In this document: piece after piece, positions 5,584-34,703 of the stretch
How positions within the stretch are numbered: position 1 is the first letter of the stretch
Layout of the letters: every line of letters starts with the position of its first letter
Made by a program: the position numbers and the translations under genes
Source of the DNA: Deinococcales bacterium
GTDB taxonomy: Bacteria > Deinococcota > Deinococci > Deinococcales > JAAFIG01
Direction: 5' to 3'
Assembly (NCBI GenBank): GCA_043778225.1
Contig: JAYWGM010000061.1
Span: forward strand, 2,010 to 66,009
Length of the DNA stretch: 64,000 nt
Notes under the pieces: generated by a model
The model's input: only the letters and a program-made list of their open reading frames with translations
Told to the model about the DNA's origin: nothing
Database searches by the model: none

Positions 5584-6480
5584 TTATTTACTGGCTGCAT
5601 CAAGGAACGGTATCACGGTAGCACTCAAGGCTGAGGACATAAAAATCTGATAATGACTCGTAGCTGGCAGAATAGCCAATTGAGCCTTTGACATTCCCGA
5701 ACCATCCCAACCAGCGTCTTTTTGACCGCCGCCAAGCAATTCAAAGAATTGTGCGGTGTGGGCAGTGCTAATCGAATCTGCATCTCCTGCAACAATCATG
5801 GTTGGTAATTTTAGTTTAGCCACTTCATCTGCCCAGTTGTAATCTTGTACCAGCAATTCACGTATTTTGTTGTGCAGCGTCACCCAGTTCTCTGGCTTTG
5901 GGGCAACACCAACGTACAATTGGTGCGGAGGACTGCCTTTCATTCCTTCAGCAGAGGCTGCGCCCATTTGGGCGTGTTGCGCTCGTAAATCGGCAAACCA
6001 GCCATCACGCTTAAAAGGTGTAGAAACCAGCACAAGTTTACGCACCAGACTTGGGTGCTGAATCGCGGTTCGCAATGCCACACCACCACCGAGCGAGTAG
6101 CCCATGACATCGGCATTGGATAAACCCAAGTGGCGTATGAGACCCGCAATATCATCTGCCATACGCTCATAAGAAAGTGGGCGGTTAATGTCGGCAGTTC
6201 GTCCATGGGCTTGTAAATCTACGGCGATCACTTGTCGTCCTTTGGCGAGTTGAGGCAACACTTCGCCAAACATTTCTATTGCCCCAAGTCCGCCGTGCAA
6301 CAGAATAACGGGTTGTCCTATGCCATGAATTTGATAGTAGAGGTTCAGTCCATTGACGGGTGCATAACCACTTTTGGTTGCGCTAGAATTGCCAGATTGA
6401 GCTTGCAGATTTGTTGCTAGTAAGGTCGTACCGAGAATGGCGGTGGCTGCGAAAATGTTCTTGATGCTTGGTGTTTGCAT
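5584..6480 (-). CDS. Secreted alpha/beta hydrolase
   Basis: 298 aa. Signal peptide (AILGTTLLATNLQAQS), oxyanion HGG (ILLHGGLG), nucleophile elbow GYSLGG. AAGGAG RBS. Confidence 0.85.
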   Translation of the reverse strand: MQTPSIKNIFAATAILGTTLLATNLQAQSGNSSATKSGYAPVNGLNLYYQIHGIGQPVILLHGGLGAIEMFGEVLPQLAKGRQVIAVDLQAHGRTADINRPLSYERMADDIAGLIRHLGLSNADVMGYSLGGGVALRTAIQHPSLVRKLVLVSTPFKRDGWFADLRAQHAQMGAASAEGMKGSPPHQLYVGVAPKPENWVTLHNKIRELLVQDYNWADEVAKLKLPTMIVAGDADSISTAHTAQFFELLGGGQKDAGWDGSGMSKAQLAILPATSHYQIFMSSALSATVIPFLDAASK

Positions 6481-7628: not shown

Positions 7629-7643
7629 ATCTTGGAGGTCAAC

Positions 7644-8345
7644 ATGGCAAACGAAAAAGTCGTCCCACTGTATCCAGCAGCAGATCTTAAAGTCACCCTC
7701 GAGTTTTACACCATGCTGGGTTTTACAGTTCTGTACGAACAACACGCACCTTATGCGTATGGTAGTGTGTCACTCGAGAATATTCAAATCGATTTTTTCG
7801 TCAATAAAGCCTTGGTAGCCAATCAAGAAACGGGGCATATGTGCTTGGTTGTTCTGACCAACATAGATGAGCTTCACGCGGCATTCTCGAGCCAGATTAA
7901 AAAAACTTTCGGTAAGCAAATACGCAGCGGTTTTCCGCGAGTGAGTGGCTTAAATGATGCGCGAAAAAATGACCGTCGGTTTAATTTACTTGACCCTTCT
8001 GGGAATCGCCTGACTTTTATTCAAGTCGGCGAAAGGCTTCCCAAAGCCGTAAAAAGTAACACGCCATTGGTCAAAGCCATGATGGGCGCAAAAGTATTCG
8101 CGTACTCTAAAGATGACCCTCAACTGGCTGCCCAGCACTTAGACAAAGCCCTTGGTAAAGCAAATTCCGAGTCGGCGGTCATTCAATTTCAGGCGTTTGT
8201 GCTTCGGGCAGATATTGCGGCTGCGCTGGATGACACGGCAACCCTCGAGAAGTACGTGAAGGCTGCTAAAAACTTGGTTCTCGAGGAACATCAAAAACTC
8301 GAGGTGCAAGAGGAATTGGGGCGTTTACTTGAACTCGAGATGTGA
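7644..8345 (+). CDS. VOC/glyoxalase-like N-terminal domain protein with a helical C-terminal extension
   Basis: The track ORF starts at TTG 7632. ATG 7644 follows GGAGG. N-terminus PLYPAADLKVTLEFYTMLGF is bleomycin-resistance/glyoxalase-like. The C-terminal ~100 aa are unassigned. Confidence 0.65.
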   Translation: MANEKVVPLYPAADLKVTLEFYTMLGFTVLYEQHAPYAYGSVSLENIQIDFFVNKALVANQETGHMCLVVLTNIDELHAAFSSQIKKTFGKQIRSGFPRVSGLNDARKNDRRFNLLDPSGNRLTFIQVGERLPKAVKSNTPLVKAMMGAKVFAYSKDDPQLAAQHLDKALGKANSESAVIQFQAFVLRADIAAALDDTATLEKYVKAAKNLVLEEHQKLEVQEELGRLLELEM

Positions 8346-8595: not shown

Positions 8596-11364
8596 ATGAT
8601 GAAATCCATTTCCAAAAATAGCGGTATTCACGACCTTGTACACATGATTTCAGAACACATCCAAACCAATTGGAAAAGTATTCTCGAGCAGAACGCCGCT
8701 AAACTCGAGGATGCGTATGCCAGAGGTGGAGATATGGCGTATGGTACGTACTTGGGCTTGTTGTTTCGTAAGGTCAATCAACAACTCAAACAAGCTGGAT
8801 TTCATCTCGAGCCAGAATTGCCGGGTGACTTAAATATTTCCCGCGAATGGGGTGATGCCTCAGAACGCCATCAGCAGCGCATTATGTGGTCTTTGGTGAC
8901 TCGAGAGAATGAAGAACTTGGTGCAATTGCAATTACGGTTTTTCATGATCACACCATGTTTTTTCTGCCCGAAGCGCCTCAAGTGCTGGGACTCGAGTCA
9001 ACGGATGCAATAACCGAACTGAGTCAGTATTTCCCAGAATTTGCCAGTGCTAAACCATTTTTTGTTGAAGTTGAGGAGTACATGAAAATGCAGGAACTCG
9101 AGACTGAAATAACTCCAATCAACAGAGATTTTATTCGTATTCGCGGCGCTCGAGAAAACAACCTTAAAAATATTTCGATTGATATTCCTAAGAATCAAAT
9201 TACGGTCTTTACAGGTGTATCTGGCTCGGGTAAATCCAGTTTGGTATTCGATACCATCGCCGCCGAAGCCCAACGCCAACTGAACGAAACGTTCACTAAT
9301 TTTGTACAGGGTTTTCTGCCAAGTTATGGGCAACCCGATGTGGATTCAATCGAGAATCTAAATGCCCCGATTATCATTAACCAAAAACGGGTCGGTGGTG
9401 GCTCACGCTCGACCATGGGAACATACACCGATATTGCAGGGCTGCTGCGCTTGCTGTTTTCTCGAGCAGGTATGCCTTCGGCTGGGGCAGCTTTTGTCTA
9501 TTCGTTCAATACGCCACAAGGAATGTGTCTCGAGTGCGAGGGCATTGGCAAAACCGTACAACTTGATCTCGAGAAATTTCTTGATAAATCAAAATCTTTG
9601 AATGGTGGTGCGTTACTCCACCCAGAATTTAAGGTTGGTAAATGGATTTGGAAAATCTATACGCAATCTGGATTTTTTGATAACAATAAACCGCTTTCAG
9701 AATACACAACCAAAGAAATGGACATCTTGCTCTATGGTGCAGGACAACAAAAAATTGCTTTCACCGATTTTAATTTAACCTATGAAGGTTTAATTGAGCG
9801 CTTCACCCGTTCATACATCAAAAAAGACAGTGCCGCCATGTCTGAGCGTAACCGCACTATTTTCGAGCAATTTGTGAATACCCAAATCTGTCCAGTCTGT
9901 CATGGGGCAAGGCTGAACCAAGCGGCGCTCGAGTCTAAAATCAATGGGTTAAACATTAGCGATATGTCGAATCTCGAGGCAACAAAACTGATTCGAGTCC
10001 TCCAAGGTCTGACTGAGCCAGTCGCCTTAAAGATAGCGGCGAAACTGCTTGAACGACTCGAGCATCTGGTGGAGATTGGCTTGGGCTACCTAAGTTTAAG
10101 TCGTGAAACCGCCACGCTTTCGGGCGGCGAATCGCAGCGTATTAAAATGATTCGACACCTTGGCAACAGCCTGACCGATATGCTTTATATCCTTGATGAA
10201 CCTTCCGTTGGGCTTCATGCTCGAGATGTGGCGCGATTGACTGGTCTACTGTGCCAACTGCGTGACAAAGGCAATACGGTATTGGTGGTGGAACACGACC
10301 CAGATGTGATTCGGGTGGCTGACCATATTGTGGACATTGGACCAAAAGCTGGTTCGCATGGTGGGCAAGTGGTTTTTGAAGGCAGTGTGACCGAACTGCT
10401 CGAGTCGGATACTTTAACAGGGCGATTTTTGCAACAGAATTTACCCATGAAACTCGAGGTTCGTAAAGCCACGGGGTTTCTCGAGATTAAAAATGCTAAG
10501 GTCAACAACCTTAAAAACGTTTCGGTCGGCATTCCAACAGGGGTTTTTACGGTTGTGACAGGTGTGGCGGGAAGCGGCAAAAGTAGCCTGATTAACGATG
10601 TCTTTCTTGAGCAGTACCCAAATGCAATTGTCATAGACCAGTCCAAAGTCACGACTTCGGTGCGCTCTGCCCCAGCCACCTACACGGGCATCATGGATGA
10701 AATTCGCAGTGCCTTTGCCAAAGCCAACAAAGTCAGCCCATCGTTGTTTAGTTTTAATTCGGCAGGAAGCTGCCAGAATTGCAACGGGTTGGGCGTGGTC
10801 TATACCGACCTTGCTTTTATGGAAGGAATCACCTCGCACTGCGAAGTCTGCGATGGGAAACGCTTTAAGCCCGAAGTTCTCGAGTACACACTGCGCCATA
10901 AAACCATCAGCGATGTCCTCGAGTTGACCGTAGAAGATGCACTCGGGTATTTTACGGAAAAGAAAATTCGGGCGGTGGTACAAGCCATGTCCGATGTTGG
11001 CTTGGGGTACTTAAAGCTCGGGCAGCCACTGAGTACCGTGTCTGGTGGCGAAGGGCAACGCCTTAAACTGGCTACCGAACTGCACAAAGCTGGAACGGTT
11101 TACGTGATGGATGAACCAACCACGGGACTGCATTTGTCCGATATTGGGCAACTGATGAAAATTATAGATAAGCTGGTGGATGCGGGGAACACGGTTATTT
11201 TAATCGAGCATCACTTGGATGTGATTCGTCAAGCTGACTGGATTATTGACATTGGACCAGAAGGTGGGAGCAGTGGAGGAGAGGTGCTGTTTGAAGGGAC
11301 ACCACTTGGCTTGCTCGAGTCTAAACGCAGTATCACCGCCAAGTATTTAATGCCAAATTATTAA
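8596..11364 (+). CDS. UvrA paralog, short (class II / UvrA2-like) form with an extra ~175-aa N-terminal domain
   Basis: 922 aa, AGGAGG RBS. Two ABC modules: Walker A GVSGSGKSS and GVAGSGKSS, signatures LSGGESQR and VSGGEGQR, Walker B LYILDEPS and VYVMDEPT. Cys-pair Zn motifs CLECEG, CPVCHG, CQNCNG, CEVCDG. The UvrA homology starts near aa 178 (FIRIRGARENNLKNISIDIP). Confidence 0.85.
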   Translation: MMKSISKNSGIHDLVHMISEHIQTNWKSILEQNAAKLEDAYARGGDMAYGTYLGLLFRKVNQQLKQAGFHLEPELPGDLNISREWGDASERHQQRIMWSLVTRENEELGAIAITVFHDHTMFFLPEAPQVLGLESTDAITELSQYFPEFASAKPFFVEVEEYMKMQELETEITPINRDFIRIRGARENNLKNISIDIPKNQITVFTGVSGSGKSSLVFDTIAAEAQRQLNETFTNFVQGFLPSYGQPDVDSIENLNAPIIINQKRVGGGSRSTMGTYTDIAGLLRLLFSRAGMPSAGAAFVYSFNTPQGMCLECEGIGKTVQLDLEKFLDKSKSLNGGALLHPEFKVGKWIWKIYTQSGFFDNNKPLSEYTTKEMDILLYGAGQQKIAFTDFNLTYEGLIERFTRSYIKKDSAAMSERNRTIFEQFVNTQICPVCHGARLNQAALESKINGLNISDMSNLEATKLIRVLQGLTEPVALKIAAKLLERLEHLVEIGLGYLSLSRETATLSGGESQRIKMIRHLGNSLTDMLYILDEPSVGLHARDVARLTGLLCQLRDKGNTVLVVEHDPDVIRVADHIVDIGPKAGSHGGQVVFEGSVTELLESDTLTGRFLQQNLPMKLEVRKATGFLEIKNAKVNNLKNVSVGIPTGVFTVVTGVAGSGKSSLINDVFLEQYPNAIVIDQSKVTTSVRSAPATYTGIMDEIRSAFAKANKVSPSLFSFNSAGSCQNCNGLGVVYTDLAFMEGITSHCEVCDGKRFKPEVLEYTLRHKTISDVLELTVEDALGYFTEKKIRAVVQAMSDVGLGYLKLGQPLSTVSGGEGQRLKLATELHKAGTVYVMDEPTTGLHLSDIGQLMKIIDKLVDAGNTVILIEHHLDVIRQADWIIDIGPEGGSSGGEVLFEGTPLGLLESKRSITAKYLMPNY

Positions 11365-20898: not shown

Positions 20899-22179
20899 CT
20901 ATGGGTACAACCCACGCAAGGCTCGAGCCTCGAGAACCCGTGTACAAGCCACAATAAAGGTGGCGGTTCGCATCGTCACGTTTTTGTCTTGGGCAACATC
21001 CCAGATGCCTTTGAAGGCTTCGACCATGATTTTCTCGAGCCGCTTGTTGATTTCGTCTTCAGTCCAGAAAAAACTGCTAAAATCCTGCACCCATTCAAAG
21101 TACGAAACTGTCACGCCACCCGCGTTTGCCAGCACATCTGGCACAACCACAATGCCACGTTCGCGCAGGGCATCGTCGGCGGCTGGGGTGGTTGGTCCGT
21201 TTGCACCCTCGACCACAATTCGGGTTTTAATTTGTTGCACGTTGTCCAGAGTAATCTGCTTCTCGAGCGCGGCTGGAATCAAGAACTCGGTCTCGACACC
21301 CCAAAAATCGTTTTTAGCGATTACTTCGCACTTGGGGTAGGCGGTTACGTCTGGATTTTCTTTGATAAACTCGAGCAAGTCGTGTGGGTTAATCCCATCG
21401 CCGTTAAAAATCGTGCCGGACACATCTTGAATCGCCACAATTTTTGCGCCGTGGTCATGGAAAATTCTTGCGCTGGCATTGCCGACATTGCCAAAGCCTT
21501 GAATCGTGACTCGAGAACCCTGAATTTCTAAACCGATGCGCTTGGCAGCTTCGCGCCCAGTCACAAAAACGCCACGCCCTGTGGCATCGCGCCGCCCAAG
21601 GCTGCCGCCTAAAGCAATTGGCTTGCCAGTCACGACACCAGTGGCGGTGCGCCCTTGGTTCATGCTGTAGGTGTCCATCATCCATGCCATCGTTAATTCG
21701 TTGGTGTTGACATCTGGGGCGGGAATGTCTTTGTCTGGTCCGATGATAAAATTGATTTCCGAAGTATAACGCCGTGTCATTTTCTCGAGTTCACCGCGTG
21801 AAAGTTTGCGTGGGTCTACCCGAATGCCACCTTTCGCGCCACCATATGGCAAATTGACCGCCGCATTTTTAACCGTCATCCAAGCACTGAGTGCCATCAC
21901 TTCGGATAAGGTCACATCTTGGTGATAGCGCACCCCACCCTTGCCGGGTCCGCGGCTCGAGTTGTGCTGCACCCGATAACCTTCAAAATGAGCAATGCTG
22001 CCATCATCGAGTTGAATTGGTACATCCACAATTAAAATGCGCTTTGGGCGCTTGAGGGTTTCGACCCAGTAGGCAAGTTTACCCAAGTACGGCGTAACCC
22101 TATCAACTTGCTCGAGGTAAATTTCCCACGGTCCGAGGTTATCGTGATTTAAGTAAGAAGGAACTTCGTGTTGGTGCAT
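20899..22179 (-). CDS. gdh: Glutamate dehydrogenase (ELFV family), copy 1
   Basis: ORF 20899..22269 trimmed to ATG 22179 (AGGAGA RBS). The N-terminal 30 codons of the track ORF run through the octamer repeat array. Motifs [14 protein letters not shown] and [10 protein letters not shown]. Confidence 0.9.
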
Positions 22180-22195
22180 ATGGATTCTCCTGTGG

Positions 22196-22268
22196 AGGGT
22201 GAAAGGTGAAGGGTAAAAAGGTAAAAAGGGCAAAAGGTAAAAAGGGCAAAAGGTGAAAAGGTAAAACA
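22196..22268. repeat. Array of ~9 degenerate 7-8-nt units GGTRAAAA/GGGCAAAA (TTTTYACC on the gene strand) just upstream of the gdh RBS
   Basis: GAGGGTGAAAGGTGAAGGGTAAAAAGGTAAAAAGGGCAAAAGGTAAAAAGGGCAAAAGGTGAAAAGGTAAAAC, read directly. Confidence 0.85.
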
Positions 22269-22296
22269 ATTTTCTCTTTCCTCTTTCCTATGCTTT

Positions 22297-23574
22297 TTAC
22301 GGGTAAAGCCCTCTTAGATTGGTGCTTTCGTTGATTCGGCTGACCGCTAAAATAAAAGCGGCTTGGCGCAGATTGACATGGCGTTCGTTTTTGACGGCAT
22401 AGACACTATCTAAGGCGTGTTCGATGTGCTGCTCGAGGTTGCTGCGGATTTCGTCTTCAGTCCAATAGAGATTATTAAAATCCTGTACCCATTCGTAATA
22501 CGAAACCGTCACGCCACCCGAATTGGCTAGATAGTCTGGGATAATCACCCGTCCCTCGCGCTCGAGAATTGCGTCGGCGGCTCGAGTAATGGCATGGTTT
22601 GCCCCTTCGGCAATAATCTGGGCTTCGACTTTGCTGGCGTTGCCGGCGTGGATTGCTCCTTCGCGCACGGCTGGCACAAGAATATCTACGGGCAGGGTTA
22701 AAAGGCTTTCTTGGTCTATGCGTTTGGCGTTGGCAAAACCCAGCACCGAGCCATAAGCGTTTTTGTACTCGAGCAGGGCTGGAACATCAAAGCCGTCATG
22801 GGCATAAATCGCGCCGCTCGAGTCCGAAACTGCCACCACCCGCACACCGCGCTCAAACAGCCCAAGCGCCGCATAACGCCCGACCATACCAAAACCCTGA
22901 ACTGCGGCGCTGGCTTTCTCGAGTTGGATGTTTTCGCGCATCGCCACACCAAAAATACTATAAGCAATGCCACGTCCAGCCGCCTCGACCCGCCCGATGC
23001 TGCCACCCAGCGCCACCGGTTTACCGGTTACGACACCAGTCACGGTACTGCCTTTATTTTGGCTGTAGGTGTCCATTATCCATGCCATGATTTGTTCGTT
23101 TGTGCCAGTGTCTGGGGCTGGAATATCTTTGTCTGGTCCGATTAAATCCACCAATTCGGAAGTATAGCGCCGTGTTAAACGTTCGGTTTCTGACCTCGAG
23201 ATTGTTTTTGGGTCCACGTCTATGCCGCCCTTTGCACCACCAAAGGGCAAATTCATAACCGCGCATTTGATCGTCATGGCAGCCGCTAAACCACGGACTT
23301 CATCCAAGTTTAAGCCAGCCCGATAGCGCAGCCCACCTTTCGAGGGTCCTCGAGAAATACTGTGCTGAACTCGGTAGCCCGTAAAAAAACGAACTGAACC
23401 ATCGTCCATGCGAATCGGCACAGATACCGTGACCATACGCTTAGGGTGGCGCAGCGACTCGAGTGTTTGGCTAAAATAAATTTGGGAGCTTTGAACTTGC
23501 TCCAAAAAGGCGTGCCAGAGGTTTAAGTTCTCGGGTTCGGGTTCGTGTCGAGCTTGTGGCTCGGGTTGATTCAT
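22297..23574 (-). CDS. gdh: Glutamate dehydrogenase (ELFV family), copy 2 (paralog)
   Basis: ORF trimmed to ATG 23574 (GGAGG RBS). Motifs LPFGGAKGGIDVDP and AVQGFGMVGRY. Tandem with copy 1. Confidence 0.9.
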   Translation of the reverse strand: MNQPEPQARHEPEPENLNLWHAFLEQVQSSQIYFSQTLESLRHPKRMVTVSVPIRMDDGSVRFFTGYRVQHSISRGPSKGGLRYRAGLNLDEVRGLAAAMTIKCAVMNLPFGGAKGGIDVDPKTISRSETERLTRRYTSELVDLIGPDKDIPAPDTGTNEQIMAWIMDTYSQNKGSTVTGVVTGKPVALGGSIGRVEAAGRGIAYSIFGVAMRENIQLEKASAAVQGFGMVGRYAALGLFERGVRVVAVSDSSGAIYAHDGFDVPALLEYKNAYGSVLGFANAKRIDQESLLTLPVDILVPAVREGAIHAGNASKVEAQIIAEGANHAITRAADAILEREGRVIIPDYLANSGGVTVSYYEWVQDFNNLYWTEDEIRSNLEQHIEHALDSVYAVKNERHVNLRQAAFILAVSRINESTNLRGLYP

Positions 23575-23674
23575 GAGTCCTCCGCAAGTTCTCGAGGTGT
23601 CCTCGAGTGGCTGTATTTCGATGCTTGGATTATACACTCCTTGCAAACGTTTGTTTGGTTAATGCCAGATGAGA

Positions 23675-27063: not shown

Positions 27064-28230
27064 ATGACCCAAGCCAGAATTACCCGCGTTAGGCTCGAGA
27101 ATTATAAAAGCATCAAGTTTTGTGATGTCAAACTCGAGCCTATAACTGTGCTGGTTGGACAGAACGGCAGTGGGAAAAGTAATTTTTTAGATGCCTTAGT
27201 GTTCACTCGAGATTTATTACTGCAAAATCTGGATTTTGCAATTCAGGAACGTGGTAACTTTTTTGAAATTGCTCGTAAAGAAGGTGTACAACAAGCCCCG
27301 AGTTTTTCGGTCTTACTTGAAGTTACAGTTGGTCAAGAGTGCCTTGCACTGTATTATCAAATTGCATTTGAAGAAAAACCAATCATCAAAGAGCAATACT
27401 TGAAGAATGAGCAGGGTGAATATTTATACAAAATTGCAGAGAATGATATTTTAATCAACTCGATTCATCTGATAGAGCATCTTTTCACCAGTCACCTTGG
27501 TATTTCGGTCAAAAGTGACTCAGATGTCAATGTCAAGGGCTTGGTGAATGTTTTTTTGCTTTTATTGCAATTTCTAAATCCTATACCAGAACATATGCGT
27601 CCACCCCAAAATCCTAATTTTTTTAACTGGTTCAAAGCTGATGGATCAAATATGGATTCGGTCTATCAAAAACTCGAGCAAGGGCAAGCTCAAAAGGTTA
27701 GAAAAATCAAGCACTACTTAGGTCTAGTCAACCCAGATATTATTGATATTGAAGTGAACAATGTCAGTAATTATCTGCTTGTGGATTTTCTGGGTAAATC
27801 ATCTCGCTTCAATAAAAGTGCCGCATCAGATGGAACGCTAAGTGCATGGGCATTGATAACTGCATTGTTTTATTGTGACGACTTAAAAAACTCAAAGCTA
27901 CTTGCCGATACAGGTTGTATTCTAATCCTCGAAGAACCCGAAGCGCATTTATACCCAACGGCATTAGAAATTCTCCTCATTCTGATACGCCAAGTTGTAC
28001 CAACTGTACAGATTTTATTGTCTACACACAGCCCAGTTTTACTCGAGAAAATTGAACTTGCTTCTGGTAAAGAAAAAATTTTGGTGGTAGAAACATTTAA
28101 TGGTGAAACAATCATTGATGAGATAGATACAGCCAGTCGTAATGTTGTTCACAAAAAACTATTTGACCTCGGCGAACTTTTAACCATGAATCAACTTGAA
28201 CCAAAAGCAATTGCTGGAAAAGCCCGATGA
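27064..28230 (+). CDS. ABC/OLD-type AAA ATPase (AAA_15/AAA_21-like), candidate defence ATPase
   Basis: 388 aa. N-terminus ITRVRLENYKSIKFCDVKLEPITVLVGQNGSGKSNFLDAL (Walker A). C-terminus ILILEEPEAHLYP (Walker B/D-loop) and LLSTHSP (H-loop). Confidence 0.8.
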   Translation: MTQARITRVRLENYKSIKFCDVKLEPITVLVGQNGSGKSNFLDALVFTRDLLLQNLDFAIQERGNFFEIARKEGVQQAPSFSVLLEVTVGQECLALYYQIAFEEKPIIKEQYLKNEQGEYLYKIAENDILINSIHLIEHLFTSHLGISVKSDSDVNVKGLVNVFLLLLQFLNPIPEHMRPPQNPNFFNWFKADGSNMDSVYQKLEQGQAQKVRKIKHYLGLVNPDIIDIEVNNVSNYLLVDFLGKSSRFNKSAASDGTLSAWALITALFYCDDLKNSKLLADTGCILILEEPEAHLYPTALEILLILIRQVVPTVQILLSTHSPVLLEKIELASGKEKILVVETFNGETIIDEIDTASRNVVHKKLFDLGELLTMNQLEPKAIAGKAR

Positions 28231-28835
28231 GTTTACTGATTCAACCAATTGTTGAAGGTCAGGGTGAAGTGCTTGCAACTCGAACCTTAATCACTCGAAT
28301 TGCTGCGACTTTTTGGAATCCTGACAGCTATGTTGAAGTGCTTCGCCCTATTTTAATTCATCGAACCAAAATTGATATTGCGTCAGAACTAGAAAATCGT
28401 ATTGAGTTAGCTCGACAAAAAATTCATGCCTCTGATTCAAATGGTGGTATTCTTGTTTTGTTTGATAGCGATGATGATTGCCCAGCAACTCTAGCGCCTA
28501 AATTGCTTGAGCGAGCTAAGAATGCCTGTATAGATGTGCCAATTAGTGTGGTTATGGCGCATCGAGAATATGAAACATGGTTTCTTGCTGCCGCTTCTTC
28601 TATTGAAGCACTCAAAAATGCTTTGCCACACCCTGACCCCGAAAGTAAACGTGGTGCAAAAGAATGGCTATCACGGCATATGACCGACAGTTACGAACCA
28701 ACAGATTACCAAACCTCATTTACTACACAATTTGATTTGCATCTGGCTCGAGAAAATGCGCCTTCGTTTGATAAGCTCTGCCGTGATTTAACCGCTATGC
28801 TAACCGAACTTTCTAATACCCCTCCGCCGCCGTGA
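28227..28835 (+). CDS. DUF4276-like protein (Toprim-like acidic motifs)
   Basis: 202 aa, ATGA overlap with the ATPase. IQPIVEGQGE near the N-terminus, LFDSDDDCP (DxD-like) and REYETWFLAA match my memory of the DUF4276 pattern. Confidence 0.65.
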   Translation: MSLLIQPIVEGQGEVLATRTLITRIAATFWNPDSYVEVLRPILIHRTKIDIASELENRIELARQKIHASDSNGGILVLFDSDDDCPATLAPKLLERAKNACIDVPISVVMAHREYETWFLAAASSIEALKNALPHPDPESKRGAKEWLSRHMTDSYEPTDYQTSFTTQFDLHLARENAPSFDKLCRDLTAMLTELSNTPPPP

Positions 28836-29502
28836 GACTCGAGACGAGTGCCAGCGCGGCGGTTTCCGCTCGTAAAATCCGTTTTCCCAGCGTCACACGA
28901 ACAATCCCTTTTTGCTCGAGCAGTGCAATTTCGTGGCTCGAGAATCCACCTTCAGGTCCAGAAATAATTGTAAAAGGCGCATCCCAACTTACGGCTTCTC
29001 GAGGCAGTAAGCTCGAGTGCGGGTGCGCCACAATGGCGGGGGAAGTTAGGCTCGAAAGTGGCATTGGCTCGAAAACGCTGGGGATTACATTGCGCTGGCA
29101 TTGCTTGGCGGCTTCGGTGGCAATGCGCCTCAGTCGCTCGAGTTTCTGTGTGCCAATTTCTTTGACTTCGCTGTGCTGAGTAATCAAAAGCTGGATGCTC
29201 GAGACTCCAAGCTCGGTGGCAGCGCGTACCACATCGGATAACTTATCGGCTTTTAACAAGGCAATGGCTAAAGTAATGCTTTGTGGTGGCTCGAGGCTGC
29301 TGGCGGTGGCTGGCTCGAGTTCAACTACAAATTGTAGTTCAGTAACCTCGAGAATAATGCCGATTGCCTCGAGTCCAGCCCCATTAAAAACCGTAATTGA
29401 ATCGCCAACTTTGGCTCGAAGCACCCGCAAATGTGCCGCCTCGAGACTGGATATTTGAATAATTGGCTCGAGATGTGCATGAAAGGTTCGGTGTGGGCGC
29501 AT
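28813..29502 (-). CDS. rsmE: 16S rRNA (uracil1498-N3)-methyltransferase
   Basis: 229 aa. C-terminal SPOUT motif IISGPEGGFSSHEIALL..G...V.LG.RILRAETA. The 3' end overlaps the DUF4276 gene by 23 nt. Confidence 0.85.
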   Translation of the reverse strand: MRPHRTFHAHLEPIIQISSLEAAHLRVLRAKVGDSITVFNGAGLEAIGIILEVTELQFVVELEPATASSLEPPQSITLAIALLKADKLSDVVRAATELGVSSIQLLITQHSEVKEIGTQKLERLRRIATEAAKQCQRNVIPSVFEPMPLSSLTSPAIVAHPHSSLLPREAVSWDAPFTIISGPEGGFSSHEIALLEQKGIVRVTLGKRILRAETAALALVSSLTAAEGY

Positions 29503-32732: not shown

Positions 32733-34703
32733 TTACTTTGTCAATGTCTCGAGAACAACCTTAACCACATTCTCCACATTAAATCCGAGTTCCTTAAATA
32801 CTACCGCATCTGGCGCACTTGCCCCGTACCTGTCGAGCGTCACCGTGCTGCCATCTAAGCCCACAAAGCGCTCCCAGCCGAGGCTCGAGCCAGCCTCAAT
32901 CGCCACCCTAGCGCGGATGCTGTTAGGCAGCACACTTTCTTTGTACTCGGCACTTTGGCTCGAGTAAATATCCCATGATAATAAACTGACGACTCGGGCT
33001 TTTTTGCCTTGCTCGAGCAGTGCCTTTTGCGCCTCGAGTGCCAAACTGACTTCGCTGCCAGTAGCGATGAGGATTACATCTGGTGTACCGTCTGAATCTG
33101 CAACAATGTAGCCACCTTTGGCGGCGTTGGCGTTAATCTCGAGAACGGGTAAATCTTGGCGGCTAAGAATAATCGCGGTTGGCTTATGTTGTTGCTCGAG
33201 GGCAATTTTCCATGCCACACTGGTTTCGTTGGCATCGGCTGGGCGAATCACGCTTAGGTTTGGTATGGCTCGTAAGGCTGCCAAATGCTCGATCGGTTGG
33301 TGCGTTGGTCCATCTGTGCCTACGCCAATGCTGTCGTGCGTAAAAACATAAATCACGGGTTGGTGCATCAGGGCTGCCATGCGGATGGCGTTTTTCATGT
33401 AATCCGAAAAGGTAAAGAATGTTGCTATAAACGGGCGCAGTCCAACCAGTGCCATCCCGTTTGCCATACCCGCCATGCCAAATTCGCGCACCCCAAAGTT
33501 GATGTTGCGGGCTGCTAAGTTATCCCTTGTCATGGCTGGTTCGCCTTTAATGACTGTCATGTTGCTGCTGCTCAGGTCGGCACTGCCACCAATCAGACGT
33601 GGCTCGAGTTTCACCAGCGCGTTAATACTGTCACCGCCAGCGTTGCGGGTGCGTACCATTTTGCCGACTTCGTACTTGGGCATCTGCTCGAGTGGGTAGT
33701 GCTGGGTTGGGTTTTGCATCATGCTCAGGAGTTCTTGGGCGAGTTCTGGGTAGGCTGCCATGTACGCGCCGTACTTGGCGTTGCCAGCTGCCTCGAGTGC
33801 CGCACCTTTTGCTCCAGCCTCGAGCCACGGCGCTGCGCCTTCTGGGTCTATAAAAAATGGCTCGAGGTTACTAAAACCATAGTGTTTCTTGGCAAAAATC
33901 ACGTCGTCCGCACTGGGGGCTTTGCCGTGAACATCTGCAAGTCCCGCTTTTGGCAGTCCGTAGCCAATCGTGGTTTTGACCTTGATTAAACTTGGGCGTG
34001 GGTCGGCTTGGGCGGCTCTAATCGCATTCTCGAGTCCAGTATAATCGGTGTCGCCGTCGGTAATCTCGAGAACGTGCCAGTTATAGGACATAAAACGCTG
34101 GGTAATATCCTCAGAAAATGCCCATTGGGTTGGACCATCTAACTGAATTTCGTTGTCGTCGTAAAGCATAATCAGCTTACCTAGCCCAAGATGCCCTGCC
34201 AGACTGGCGGTTTCGTGCGAAATCCCTTCTTGCAGGTCGCCGTCCGAGCAAATACCGTAGACAAAACCATCCACAATTTCGTGCTGGTCGCGGTTGTAAC
34301 GAGCCGCTAAATGCTGCAAACTCAATGCCATACCGACGGCATTGGCAAAGCCTTGCCCCAATGGACCGGTTGTGGTTTCGACTCCGACGGTGTGTCCAAC
34401 TTCGGGGTGTCCTGCCGTGGCACTGCCCCATTGCCTAAATTGCTTAATCTGCTCAAGCGGCAAGTCGTAACCCGTTAAATGCAGCGCTGCATATTGCAGC
34501 ATACTGCCATGACCAGCGCTTAAAACAAACCTATCTCGAGCTAACCAAGCTGGGTTTTTAGGGTTGTAGCGCATGATTTTTGTCCACAGCACATAGCCAA
34601 TCGCCGCCATGCCAAGTGGCGCACCGGGGTGTCCTTCCTTGGCTTTACAGATGGCATCGAGGGCGAGGGCGCGGAGGGTATTGACGGCAAGGGTGTCATT
34701 CAT
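32733..34703 (-). CDS. tkt: Transketolase
   Basis: 656 aa. N-terminus AVNTLRALALDAICKAKEGHPGAPLGMA. TPP motif CSDGDLQEGISHE. Confidence 0.95.
   Translation of the reverse strand: MNDTLAVNTLRALALDAICKAKEGHPGAPLGMAAIGYVLWTKIMRYNPKNPAWLARDRFVLSAGHGSMLQYAALHLTGYDLPLEQIKQFRQWGSATAGHPEVGHTVGVETTTGPLGQGFANAVGMALSLQHLAARYNRDQHEIVDGFVYGICSDGDLQEGISHETASLAGHLGLGKLIMLYDDNEIQLDGPTQWAFSEDITQRFMSYNWHVLEITDGDTDYTGLENAIRAAQADPRPSLIKVKTTIGYGLPKAGLADVHGKAPSADDVIFAKKHYGFSNLEPFFIDPEGAAPWLEAGAKGAALEAAGNAKYGAYMAAYPELAQELLSMMQNPTQHYPLEQMPKYEVGKMVRTRNAGGDSINALVKLEPRLIGGSADLSSSNMTVIKGEPAMTRDNLAARNINFGVREFGMAGMANGMALVGLRPFIATFFTFSDYMKNAIRMAALMHQPVIYVFTHDSIGVGTDGPTHQPIEHLAALRAIPNLSVIRPADANETSVAWKIALEQQHKPTAIILSRQDLPVLEINANAAKGGYIVADSDGTPDVILIATGSEVSLALEAQKALLEQGKKARVVSLLSWDIYSSQSAEYKESVLPNSIRARVAIEAGSSLGWERFVGLDGSTVTLDRYGASAPDAVVFKELGFNVENVVKVVLETLTK

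Follow-up and report, generated by a model that had tools for sequence, protein, structure and literature searches.

The hexamer CTCGAG occurs 405 times in a 64-kb stretch of DNA from a Deinococcales bacterium (assembly GCA_043778225.1, contig JAYWGM010000061.1; hereafter the window, numbered from 1 to 64000, in which each CTCGAG hexamer is called a site), with a mean spacing of 157 bp and in coding and non-coding DNA alike. We regard it as close to certain that a genome-wide pressure, acting at the level of DNA and blind to reading frame, favours this word in the Deinococcota lineage to which the window belongs, in that codons are recoded, amino acids are replaced and sites are kept between species. 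That the pressure is on DNA and not on peptides follows from the spacers being as dense in sites as the genes, and from the use of all three codon phases.

Abundance and distribution of CTCGAG in the window

The count of 405 far exceeds what the composition of the window predicts. One hundred dinucleotide-preserving shuffles gave 8.9 ± 3.2 copies (maximum 19) and a second-order Markov model built with the sites masked gave 5.4, which corresponds to a 45-75-fold enrichment. The bases on either side are approximately random, with no conservation outside the six bases, and the commonest 8-mers of the window are only CTCGAG with varied flanks; hence, the unit is the bare hexamer. A repeat element, such as a repetitive extragenic palindrome (REP) or a miniature transposable element, was rejected on the same ground. 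Since CTCGAG is its own reverse complement, strand skew is impossible, and the word lacks the strand-skewed distribution of Chi/KOPS-type sequences.

Gene calling gave 59 genes, which together span 86% of the window, and families were assigned by NCBIfam and Pfam scans. Most have a clear family, including an MFS transporter, TetR, a UvrA paralog, a BCS1-like AAA ATPase, two glutamate dehydrogenases, a GGDEF-EAL protein, MutL, transketolase, a branched-chain amino-acid ABC transporter, YifB, YidC, RnpA, ScpB and alpha-glucan phosphorylase; judged by these families, the window is ordinary chromosome. No structured RNAs or tRNAs were found in it. At least one site is present in 55 of the 59 genes, the density in coding sequence is 6.4 per kb, and about 4.5% of codons share bases with a site; genes for membrane proteins have a density below the average. 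A further 52 sites fall outside called genes, but as some of these belong to reading frames that were not called or to genes truncated by the window edges, only spacers of at most 200 bp were used for the intergenic density. These 31 spacers (1,936 bp in total) hold 16 sites, or 8.3 per kb, against 0.5 expected randomly.

The genome is otherwise poor in palindromes. At least 23 other 6-bp palindromes are absent from the window despite expected counts of 6-56, among them TGGCCA (0 versus 56 expected), AAGCTT (0 versus 38 expected), GCGCGC, TGCGCA, GGCGCC, TTCGAA, CTGCAG, GCATGC and GGTACC, and the counts of most of them are close to zero in further lineage loci too (L001-L006, L055, L056 and L058). 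Neither GAGCTC nor the cyanobacterial highly iterated palindrome HIP1, GCGATCGC, occurs in the window. Directly adjacent sites, as in the tandem CTCGAGCTCGAG, never occur either, the smallest start-to-start distance being 7; such a tandem would create the absent GAGCTC. At 8322-8339 a Leu-Glu-Leu-Glu stretch is spelled CTTGAA-CTCGAG, so that no GAGCTC arises. As separate observations on word usage, GATC is found only about 30 times in the 64 kb and AGCGCT is about twofold enriched.

Codon choice and amino-acid replacement at the sites

The initial annotation, made from the letters of the window, proposed that CTCGAG is written into proteins in all three codon phases and that the force behind it bends amino-acid sequence as well as synonymous positions. 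The first part is borne out by the 59 genes, which hold 229 sites as CTC GAG (Leu-Glu), 63 as xCT CGA Gxx (x-Arg-x) and 61 as xxC TCG AGx (x-Ser-x), a split of about 65:18:17. Far from being confined to one phase, the sites show a comparable division of about 60:20:20 in 10 loci belonging to different lineage species. When synonymous codons were shuffled within genes, keeping the proteins and the codon usage, only 31.5, 5.1 and 4.1 sites arose in the respective phases; codons are therefore chosen with a strong bias where the peptide is compatible, the latter two phases being enriched 12-15-fold over the shuffle. Shuffling of codon order yielded still fewer sites (12.5, 3.3 and 2.4), from which it follows that the word-compatible peptides are themselves enriched.

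The footprint on codon usage is correspondingly large. CTCGAG spells 229 of the 344 Leu-Glu pairs in the window genes, and the sites contain 54% of all CTC, 50% of all GAG, 34% of all CGA and 28% of all TCG codons; outside Leu-Glu pairs, only 9% of Leu residues are encoded by CTC and 24% of Glu residues by GAG. Sites thus weigh on CGA and TCG usage as had been supposed, but the description of these two codons as otherwise uncommon was overstated: with full and one-off sites set aside, CGA still supplies about 10% of Arg codons (102 copies) and TCG about 12% of Ser codons (135 copies).

The proteins are also rich in the encoded peptides, as the initial annotation had noticed. Leu-Glu occurs 344 times in the window genes against 143.7 expected (2.4-fold), the highest ratio among all dipeptides, while the ratio for Glu-Leu is 0.86. 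In five loci of the lineage the observed/expected ratio of Leu-Glu is 2.34-2.71, as opposed to 0.57-1.26 (mean 0.97) in 41 unrelated bacterial pieces. The peptides of the other phases are raised as well, with [STPA]-Arg-[VADEG] at 1.21 in the lineage versus 0.84 in unrelated loci and Ser-[Ser/Arg] at 1.35 versus 0.96; because the lineage loci share ancestry, rank tests across genome pieces are descriptive only.

These data bear directly on an explanation at the level of protein or codon usage, in which selection for Leu-Glu or a preference for CTC and GAG codons yields the word as a by-product. Such an effect does exist in GC-rich viral contigs, where CTCGAG is the top or a near-top hexamer owing to a preference for CTC and GAG, and where GAGCTC is comparably frequent. 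In the window, however, CTC and GAG are minority codons outside Leu-Glu, GAGCTC is missing, Glu-Leu is not enriched, the spacers are as dense as the genes, and the two phases that do not encode Leu-Glu are strongly over-represented. We consider this explanation barely credible, and rejected both peptide-level selection and a codon-usage artefact on the spacer density, the phase enrichment, the absence of GAGCTC and the low Glu-Leu ratio. Viral contigs among the matches listed (for three clustered sites) were likewise rejected as instances of the same phenomenon, since they are GC-rich, have CTCGAG at only 1.5-2 times the next hexamer and have frequent GAGCTC.

The effect on individual proteins was followed in three genes, of which the UvrA-like one was tabulated site by site, with the states in 89 outgroup sequences and in the lineage relatives L055, L056 and L058. 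The features are as follows:

8596-11364, plus strand: UvrA-paralog gene (class-II UvrA / DrrC-like, N-terminal DUF6022), from NCBIfam UvrA matches and DUF6022 in the closest homologs
8683-8688: CTC GAG, ILEQ, in the DUF6022 part; CTCACT (Leu-Thr) in L058
8704-8709: CTC GAG, KLED; CTCGAA, a synonymous variant, in L058
8806-8811: CTC GAG, HLEP; CTCAGT (Leu-Ser) in L058
8900-8905: xCT CGA Gxx, VTREN; CCCGAG in L055
8992-8997: CTC GAG, GLES; TTTGAG (Phe-Glu) in L058
9097-9102: CTC GAG, ELET; kept in L055 and L058
9149-9154: xCT CGA Gxx, GAREN; Ala-Arg-Glu in 88 of 89 outgroups, hence synonymous recoding only
9461-9466: xCT CGA Gxx, FSRAG; outgroups mostly Ser-Arg-Val, which is word-compatible too
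9529-9534: CTC GAG, CLEC; Pro-Glu (Cys-Pro-Glu-Cys) in 77 of 89 outgroups, hence Pro to Leu; site kept in L055, L058 and L056
9568-9573: CTC GAG, DLEK; outgroups Leu-Asp (40) and Leu-Glu (31)
9928-9933: CTC GAG, ALES; outgroups Leu-Asn, Leu-Ala or Leu-Asp
9973-9978: CTC GAG, NLEA; Leu-Glu ancestral (72 of 89 outgroups), hence recoding only
10057-10062: CTC GAG, RLEH; outgroups mostly Leu-Gln
10220-10225: xCT CGA Gxx, HARDV; Ala-Arg-Asp in 86 of 89 outgroups, hence recoding only
10399-10404: CTC GAG, LLES; outgroups Lys-x
10453-10458: CTC GAG, KLEV; outgroups Gln-Lys or Gln-Gln
10480-10485: CTC GAG, FLEI; outgroups mostly Met-Thr
10879-10884: CTC GAG, VLEY; outgroups Leu-Ala (43) and Leu-Glu (29)
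10918-10923: CTC GAG, VLEL; outgroups mostly Leu-Asp
11314-11319: CTC GAG, LLES; outgroups Lys-Asn and similar, other lineage members Leu-Gly or Leu-Leu
32733-34703, minus strand: transketolase gene with 15 sites (12 Leu-Glu, 1 x-Arg-x, 2 x-Ser-Ser), used for an ortholog test
20899-22269, minus strand: glutamate dehydrogenase gene with 9 sites, used for the third ortholog test
7632-8345, plus strand: gene with a Leu-Glu-rich C-terminus and 7 sites
7886-7891: third-phase site xxC TCG AGx in gene 7632-8345, TTC TCG AGC, AFSSQ
5584-6480, 27064-28835 and 28813-29502: outlier genes in site density (alpha/beta hydrolase, AAA_21/DUF4276 pair, RsmE-like)

All the peptides that the initial annotation quoted from the UvrA-like gene are correct. 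The gene's 20 sites comprise 16 Leu-Glu, 4 x-Arg-x and none in the third phase, for which the example given (gca TTC TCG AGC cag) comes from gene 7632-8345 and is real, with the site starting at 7886; the Leu-Glu-rich C-terminus LVLEEHQKLEVQEELGRLLELEM pointed out in the same gene is likewise there. The core of the UvrA-like protein has 13 Leu-Glu pairs, and the counts in 120 homologs are two-peaked, with the main peak at 2-3 and a second one at 9-14. At the core sites the outgroup plurality equals the window peptide in only 3 of 14 cases, and identity to the outgroups is 55% within sites versus 77% elsewhere. The other lineage members having Leu-Gly or Leu-Leu at 11314, the gain of that site is specific to the window's own lineage.

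Transketolase gives the sharpest result. Each of its seven lineage sequences has 12-13 Leu-Glu pairs, whereas 46 orthologs from other phyla, comparable in Leu and Glu content, have 0-4. At its 15 sites the outgroups mostly have other residues (Ser-Thr, Ile-Glu, Asp-Lys, Arg-Lys and Ile-Asp), and in the other two phases Asn/Asp-Arg-Asp has become Ala-Arg-Asp and Phe-Glu-Glu has become Tyr-Ser-Ser. The window peptide is the outgroup plurality at a single one of the 15, with identities of 22% within sites against 51% elsewhere. The effect is milder in glutamate dehydrogenase, which has 7 Leu-Glu pairs against a mean of 4.1; here 4 of the 9 sites sit on ancestral Leu-Glu and equal the outgroup plurality, and identity is 37% within sites versus 43% elsewhere.

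When the three proteins are pooled, the window peptide agrees with the plurality of the outgroups at about 8 of 38 sites, so that roughly three quarters of the sites examined involve an amino-acid difference; the ortholog alignments show these replacements in all three phases, at weakly conserved positions. The claim that the force bends amino acids is thereby sustained. As to the non-synonymous origin of individual sites, Leu-Glu sites often replaced other residues, whereas the three alignable xCT CGA Gxx sites of the UvrA-like gene lie on the conserved Ala-Arg-Glu, Ser-Arg-Val/Ala and Ala-Arg-Asp, where synonymous changes sufficed. Within the lineage, too, about half of the varying site columns vary by amino-acid replacement (a manual count from the alignment tables), as where six species have CAAGAA (Gln-Glu) and the window has CTCGAG (Leu-Glu).

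Several further observations concern the genes themselves. DUF6022 is fused N-terminally to the UvrA paralog (8596-9100) and is a separate upstream gene in a Deinococcus assembly (6427-7035 of L183), while 745-aa forms of the paralog without DUF6022 also occur in the lineage. The glutamate dehydrogenase at 20899-22269 stands in tandem on the minus strand with a paralog at 22297-23646, which has 11 sites. Among the density outliers, the alpha/beta hydrolase gene at 5584-6480 has no site in 897 bp (Poisson P of about 0.003), the low-GC (0.38-0.43) pair of AAA_21 and DUF4276 genes, which may be a recently acquired defence-type module, has few, and the RsmE-like RNA methyltransferase gene has 13 in 690 bp (18.8 per kb).

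Range, conservation and spacing of the word

The word characterises a single lineage whatever the base composition, and sister Deinococcus loci avoid it. The closest transketolases, at 85-95% identity, belong to six uncultured Deinococcales/Deinococcota metagenome-assembled genomes (L001-L006), whose loci have 4.4-6.6 sites per kb, whereas 48 loci from other phyla have 0-1.3. Further lineage loci, found by way of the UvrA-like protein, carry 4.6-6.3 per kb at a GC content of 43-51%, and two relatives at GC 56-60% have 5.0-5.9, one of them on a 5.08-Mb contig (L179) that encodes a Deinococcus-type RecJ C-terminal domain. Overall, 11 other lineage loci span 4.4-6.6 sites per kb across GC 43-60%; an assembly artefact was rejected, as the same property appears in at least 11 independent public assemblies. 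The two sister Deinococcus loci, at GC 63-66%, are devoid of the word: Deinococcus sp. HMF7604 (L182, GCA_020166395.1, GC 66%) has none in 22.8 kb, where base composition predicts about 8, and a second Deinococcus sp. assembly (L183, GCA_028287665.1) has none in 9.9 kb, where about 3 are predicted. A different over-represented word, or alternating CG runs, may be present in Pyrinomonadaceae (Acidobacteriota), in which five loci at GC 57-62% (L007, L009, L018, L021 and L028) have 55-131 CGCGCG/GCGCGC per 22 kb.

Gene order around the transketolase and UvrA-like genes is not shared among lineage members (L001-L006, L055-L058), despite the 85-95% protein identity, and DNA-level alignment was therefore limited to single query genes. 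In the alignments of two such genes, 109 of 144 sites (76%) are conserved between the window and its lineage orthologs, versus 24-42% of background hexamers in the same alignments, and synonymous codon identity is 0.74-0.93 within sites versus 0.55-0.65 outside.

Sites are also more evenly spread than chance would have it. Counts per kb are under-dispersed, the variance/mean being 0.6 for the window itself and 0.4-0.8 for most loci. Close pairs of sites are scarce: at 1-20 bp they reach 0.33 of the expected number, and up to 100 bp about 0.87. Beyond this short-range depletion, pair distances, followed to 1.2 kb, show no periodicity. Under-dispersion on this scale, the presence of the word in nearly every gene and the conservation of its positions between species might be expected of binding sites for an abundant chromosomal protein, involved in nucleoid organisation or in replication or repair loading and selected for even coverage. 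We think this very improbable: pair distances lack any regularity past the short-range depletion, no candidate protein was found, and the typical restriction-modification target form of the word, together with its avoidance in the sister Deinococcus loci, points to enzymes of the restriction-modification type instead.

Known systems and the candidate mechanisms

The principle of a hyperabundant DNA word that occupies all frames and reshapes peptides is already known. HIP1 is both over-represented and conserved, in every frame as well as in non-coding DNA (PMC5861425), HIP-type words are always accompanied by cognate methyltransferases (PMC4390886), and HIP1 has been reported to raise transformation in a way that depends on methylation (bioRxiv 10.64898/2026.06.24.733823). 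CTCGAG resembles HIP1 and the alternate HIPs in being a short, fairly GC-rich palindrome that is tens of times over-represented, in occupying all three reading frames and non-coding DNA, in the conservation of its sites between genomes beyond that of codons (PMC5861425), in the concentration of one-base deviations at the outermost positions (PMC4390886) and in having a host genome that otherwise avoids palindromes. It differs in its host, which belongs to Deinococcota and not to cyanobacteria, in its length of 6 bp versus 8 bp and unrelated sequence, and in that no cognate methyltransferase was found in about 230 kb of lineage DNA and no periodicity was detected. CTCGAG thus has the features of the class in terms of at least 15-fold over-representation, enrichment in all frames and in non-coding DNA and conservation beyond background; however, with a non-cyanobacterial host and a word of 67% GC, where family members have at least 75% or are related to HIP1, we do not file it in the HIP1 family.

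The uptake signal sequences (USS) of Pasteurellaceae and the DNA uptake sequences (DUS) of Neisseriaceae offer a second parallel. The peptides they encode are approximately doubled, and the sequences themselves occupy residues of poor conservation and do not occur in genes that lack homologs (PMC2817400). CTCGAG is likewise written into coding regions with its peptides about doubled, lies at poorly conserved residues and is rare in seemingly new genes, and its spacing is more even than random, as Karlin et al. (cited in PMC1939737) report for uptake sequences. Unlike CTCGAG, a bare palindromic hexamer, USS and DUS are asymmetric 9-12-mers with extended conserved flanks at about 1 per kb, and their function in uptake has been shown experimentally.

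In line with this parallel, CTCGAG could be a classical DNA uptake signal, bound directly by the competence machinery without methylation and accumulated through uptake bias and recombination. Cultured Deinococcus and Thermus are naturally transformable, and the even spacing of the sites would agree with such a role, as would a proteome footprint of the kind left by uptake sequences (PMC2817400). Yet a hexamer discriminates poorly per site, and the known signals have flank preferences and a density of about 1 per kb, with which the random flanks and 6 copies per kb of CTCGAG fit badly; we therefore hold this account to be decidedly unlikely.

We favour, tentatively and at somewhat less than even confidence, a mechanism in which CTCGAG labels the lineage's own DNA as a methylated mark of the HIP1 type and owes its spread and retention to DNA exchange or repair. 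Its restriction-modification angle comes from the form of the word, a 6-bp palindrome in a genome lacking at least 23 others, and from the sister Deinococcus loci being without it; methylation of CTCGAG is documented in other prokaryotes (PMC8112702; bioRxiv 10.64898/2026.06.24.734251). On this proposal, the word would be the target of a lineage-conserved, CTCGAG-specific DNA methyltransferase, and DNA with (methylated) sites would be favoured in exchange, recombination or repair. New sites would spread by selection or drive, with diminishing returns when a neighbouring site lies within about 100 bp. Whatever the mechanism, coding sequence is seen to take up the word in two ways: at existing Leu-Glu, x-Arg-[Val/Ala/Asp/Glu/Gly] and x-Ser-[Ser/Arg] the codons have switched to CTC-GAG, xCT-CGA-G and xxC-TCG-AG, and at weakly constrained positions the residues themselves have been replaced, most often to Leu-Glu. 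In evolutionary terms, it is possible, though we would not lean on it, that the lineage independently evolved a watermark of the HIP/USS type, in which CTCGAG, probably methylated, marks its own DNA for exchange, recombination or repair about once per 160 bp. The pressure and the mechanism taken together strike us as an evenly balanced proposition.

Several points weigh against the favoured mechanism. Neither the window nor some 165 kb of lineage loci (in all, about 230 kb of lineage DNA was read) yielded a DNA methyltransferase, Vsr or restriction gene: the NCBIfam and Pfam scans of the 59 window genes returned only RNA and small-molecule methyltransferases, the Pfam lists of five lineage loci held none of the three kinds of gene, and a motif scan ([DNST]PP[YFW], PCQxFS and the Vsr motif) over all the lineage DNA read gave only two chance TPPF matches. 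The link to methylation consequently rests on analogy. The analogy may itself be incomplete, given that the roughly 6 sites per kb are 3-6 times the 1-2 per kb of HIP-type words (PMC4390886). Furthermore, the spectrum of one-off variants speaks neither for nor against N6-adenine or N4-cytosine methylation, and the conservation seen between species does not tell selection apart from a strong drive that is still under way.

A rival explanation is neutral biased repair, whereby a very-short-patch-like or otherwise sequence-directed mismatch correction would turn near-cognate hexamers into CTCGAG, the word being a functionless by-product and the protein changes collateral. A precedent for shifted target frequency exists in Escherichia coli, where sequence-specific very-short-patch repair alters the frequency of the Dcm methyltransferase target CCWGG. 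CTCGAG, as a putative methyltransferase target of shifted genomic frequency, is comparable; the effect in E. coli is modest, however, and depletes CTWGG, whereas CTCGAG is enriched 45-75-fold and its transition neighbours are enriched as well. Its enrichment is also the opposite of the depletion seen in restriction-site avoidance, which at least 23 other 6-bp palindromes do show. Biased repair would account for a pressure blind to both frame and coding status, and slow accumulation fits the scarcity of sites in likely recent acquisitions (none in the hydrolase gene at 5584-6480, few in the AAA_21/DUF4276 pair); Elhai, moreover, proposed a repair-based origin for HIP (PMC4390886). The variant spectrum tells otherwise. 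All three pairs of one-transition variants (CTTGAG/CTCAAG, TTCGAG/CTCGAA and CCCGAG/CTCGGG) stand at 2.0-2.6 times expectation, whereas a system feeding on them should deplete them. One-off transversions are at 1.85 times expectation at the outer positions and 0.7-1.2 at the inner ones, and neither cytosine shows the depletion or hot spot of a very-short-patch or deamination signature. An unconditional per-site bias should also give Poisson or over-dispersed counts, in place of the under-dispersion and the depletion of close pairs observed, and the density holds steady at about 5-6.6 per kb across GC 43-60%. On balance, we judge neutral biased repair to be unlikely.

Compared with HIP1 and USS/DUS, what is new here is the phylum, the word, its length (6 bp) and its density (about 6 versus 1-2 per kb). 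To our knowledge, at about one copy per 160 bp it is the densest word of its kind. In the literature covered, which was incomplete and so is no proof of novelty, no description of CTCGAG abundance was found, including in connection with Deinococcus or with iterated or over-represented palindromes. If the proposal of a watermark is true, it would extend such systems for the first time beyond cyanobacteria and Proteobacteria (Pasteurellaceae and Neisseriaceae). The abundance of HIP1 has gone unexplained for three decades, with selection and neutral drive still argued over, and an independent case in another phylum would provide a second system for testing the methylation and transformation hypotheses. 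Relatives that span GC 43-60% at the same density and sister Deinococcus loci without the word form a natural comparative design for this purpose. In practical terms, CTCGAG density is a simple marker for binning the lineage's metagenomic contigs, and the distortion of codon usage, with half of all CTC and GAG codons lying in sites, can lead studies of codon adaptation, dN/dS and phylogenetic signal astray. With Leu-Glu at 2.5 times expectation, the composition of every protein of the lineage is biased by a word written in its DNA.

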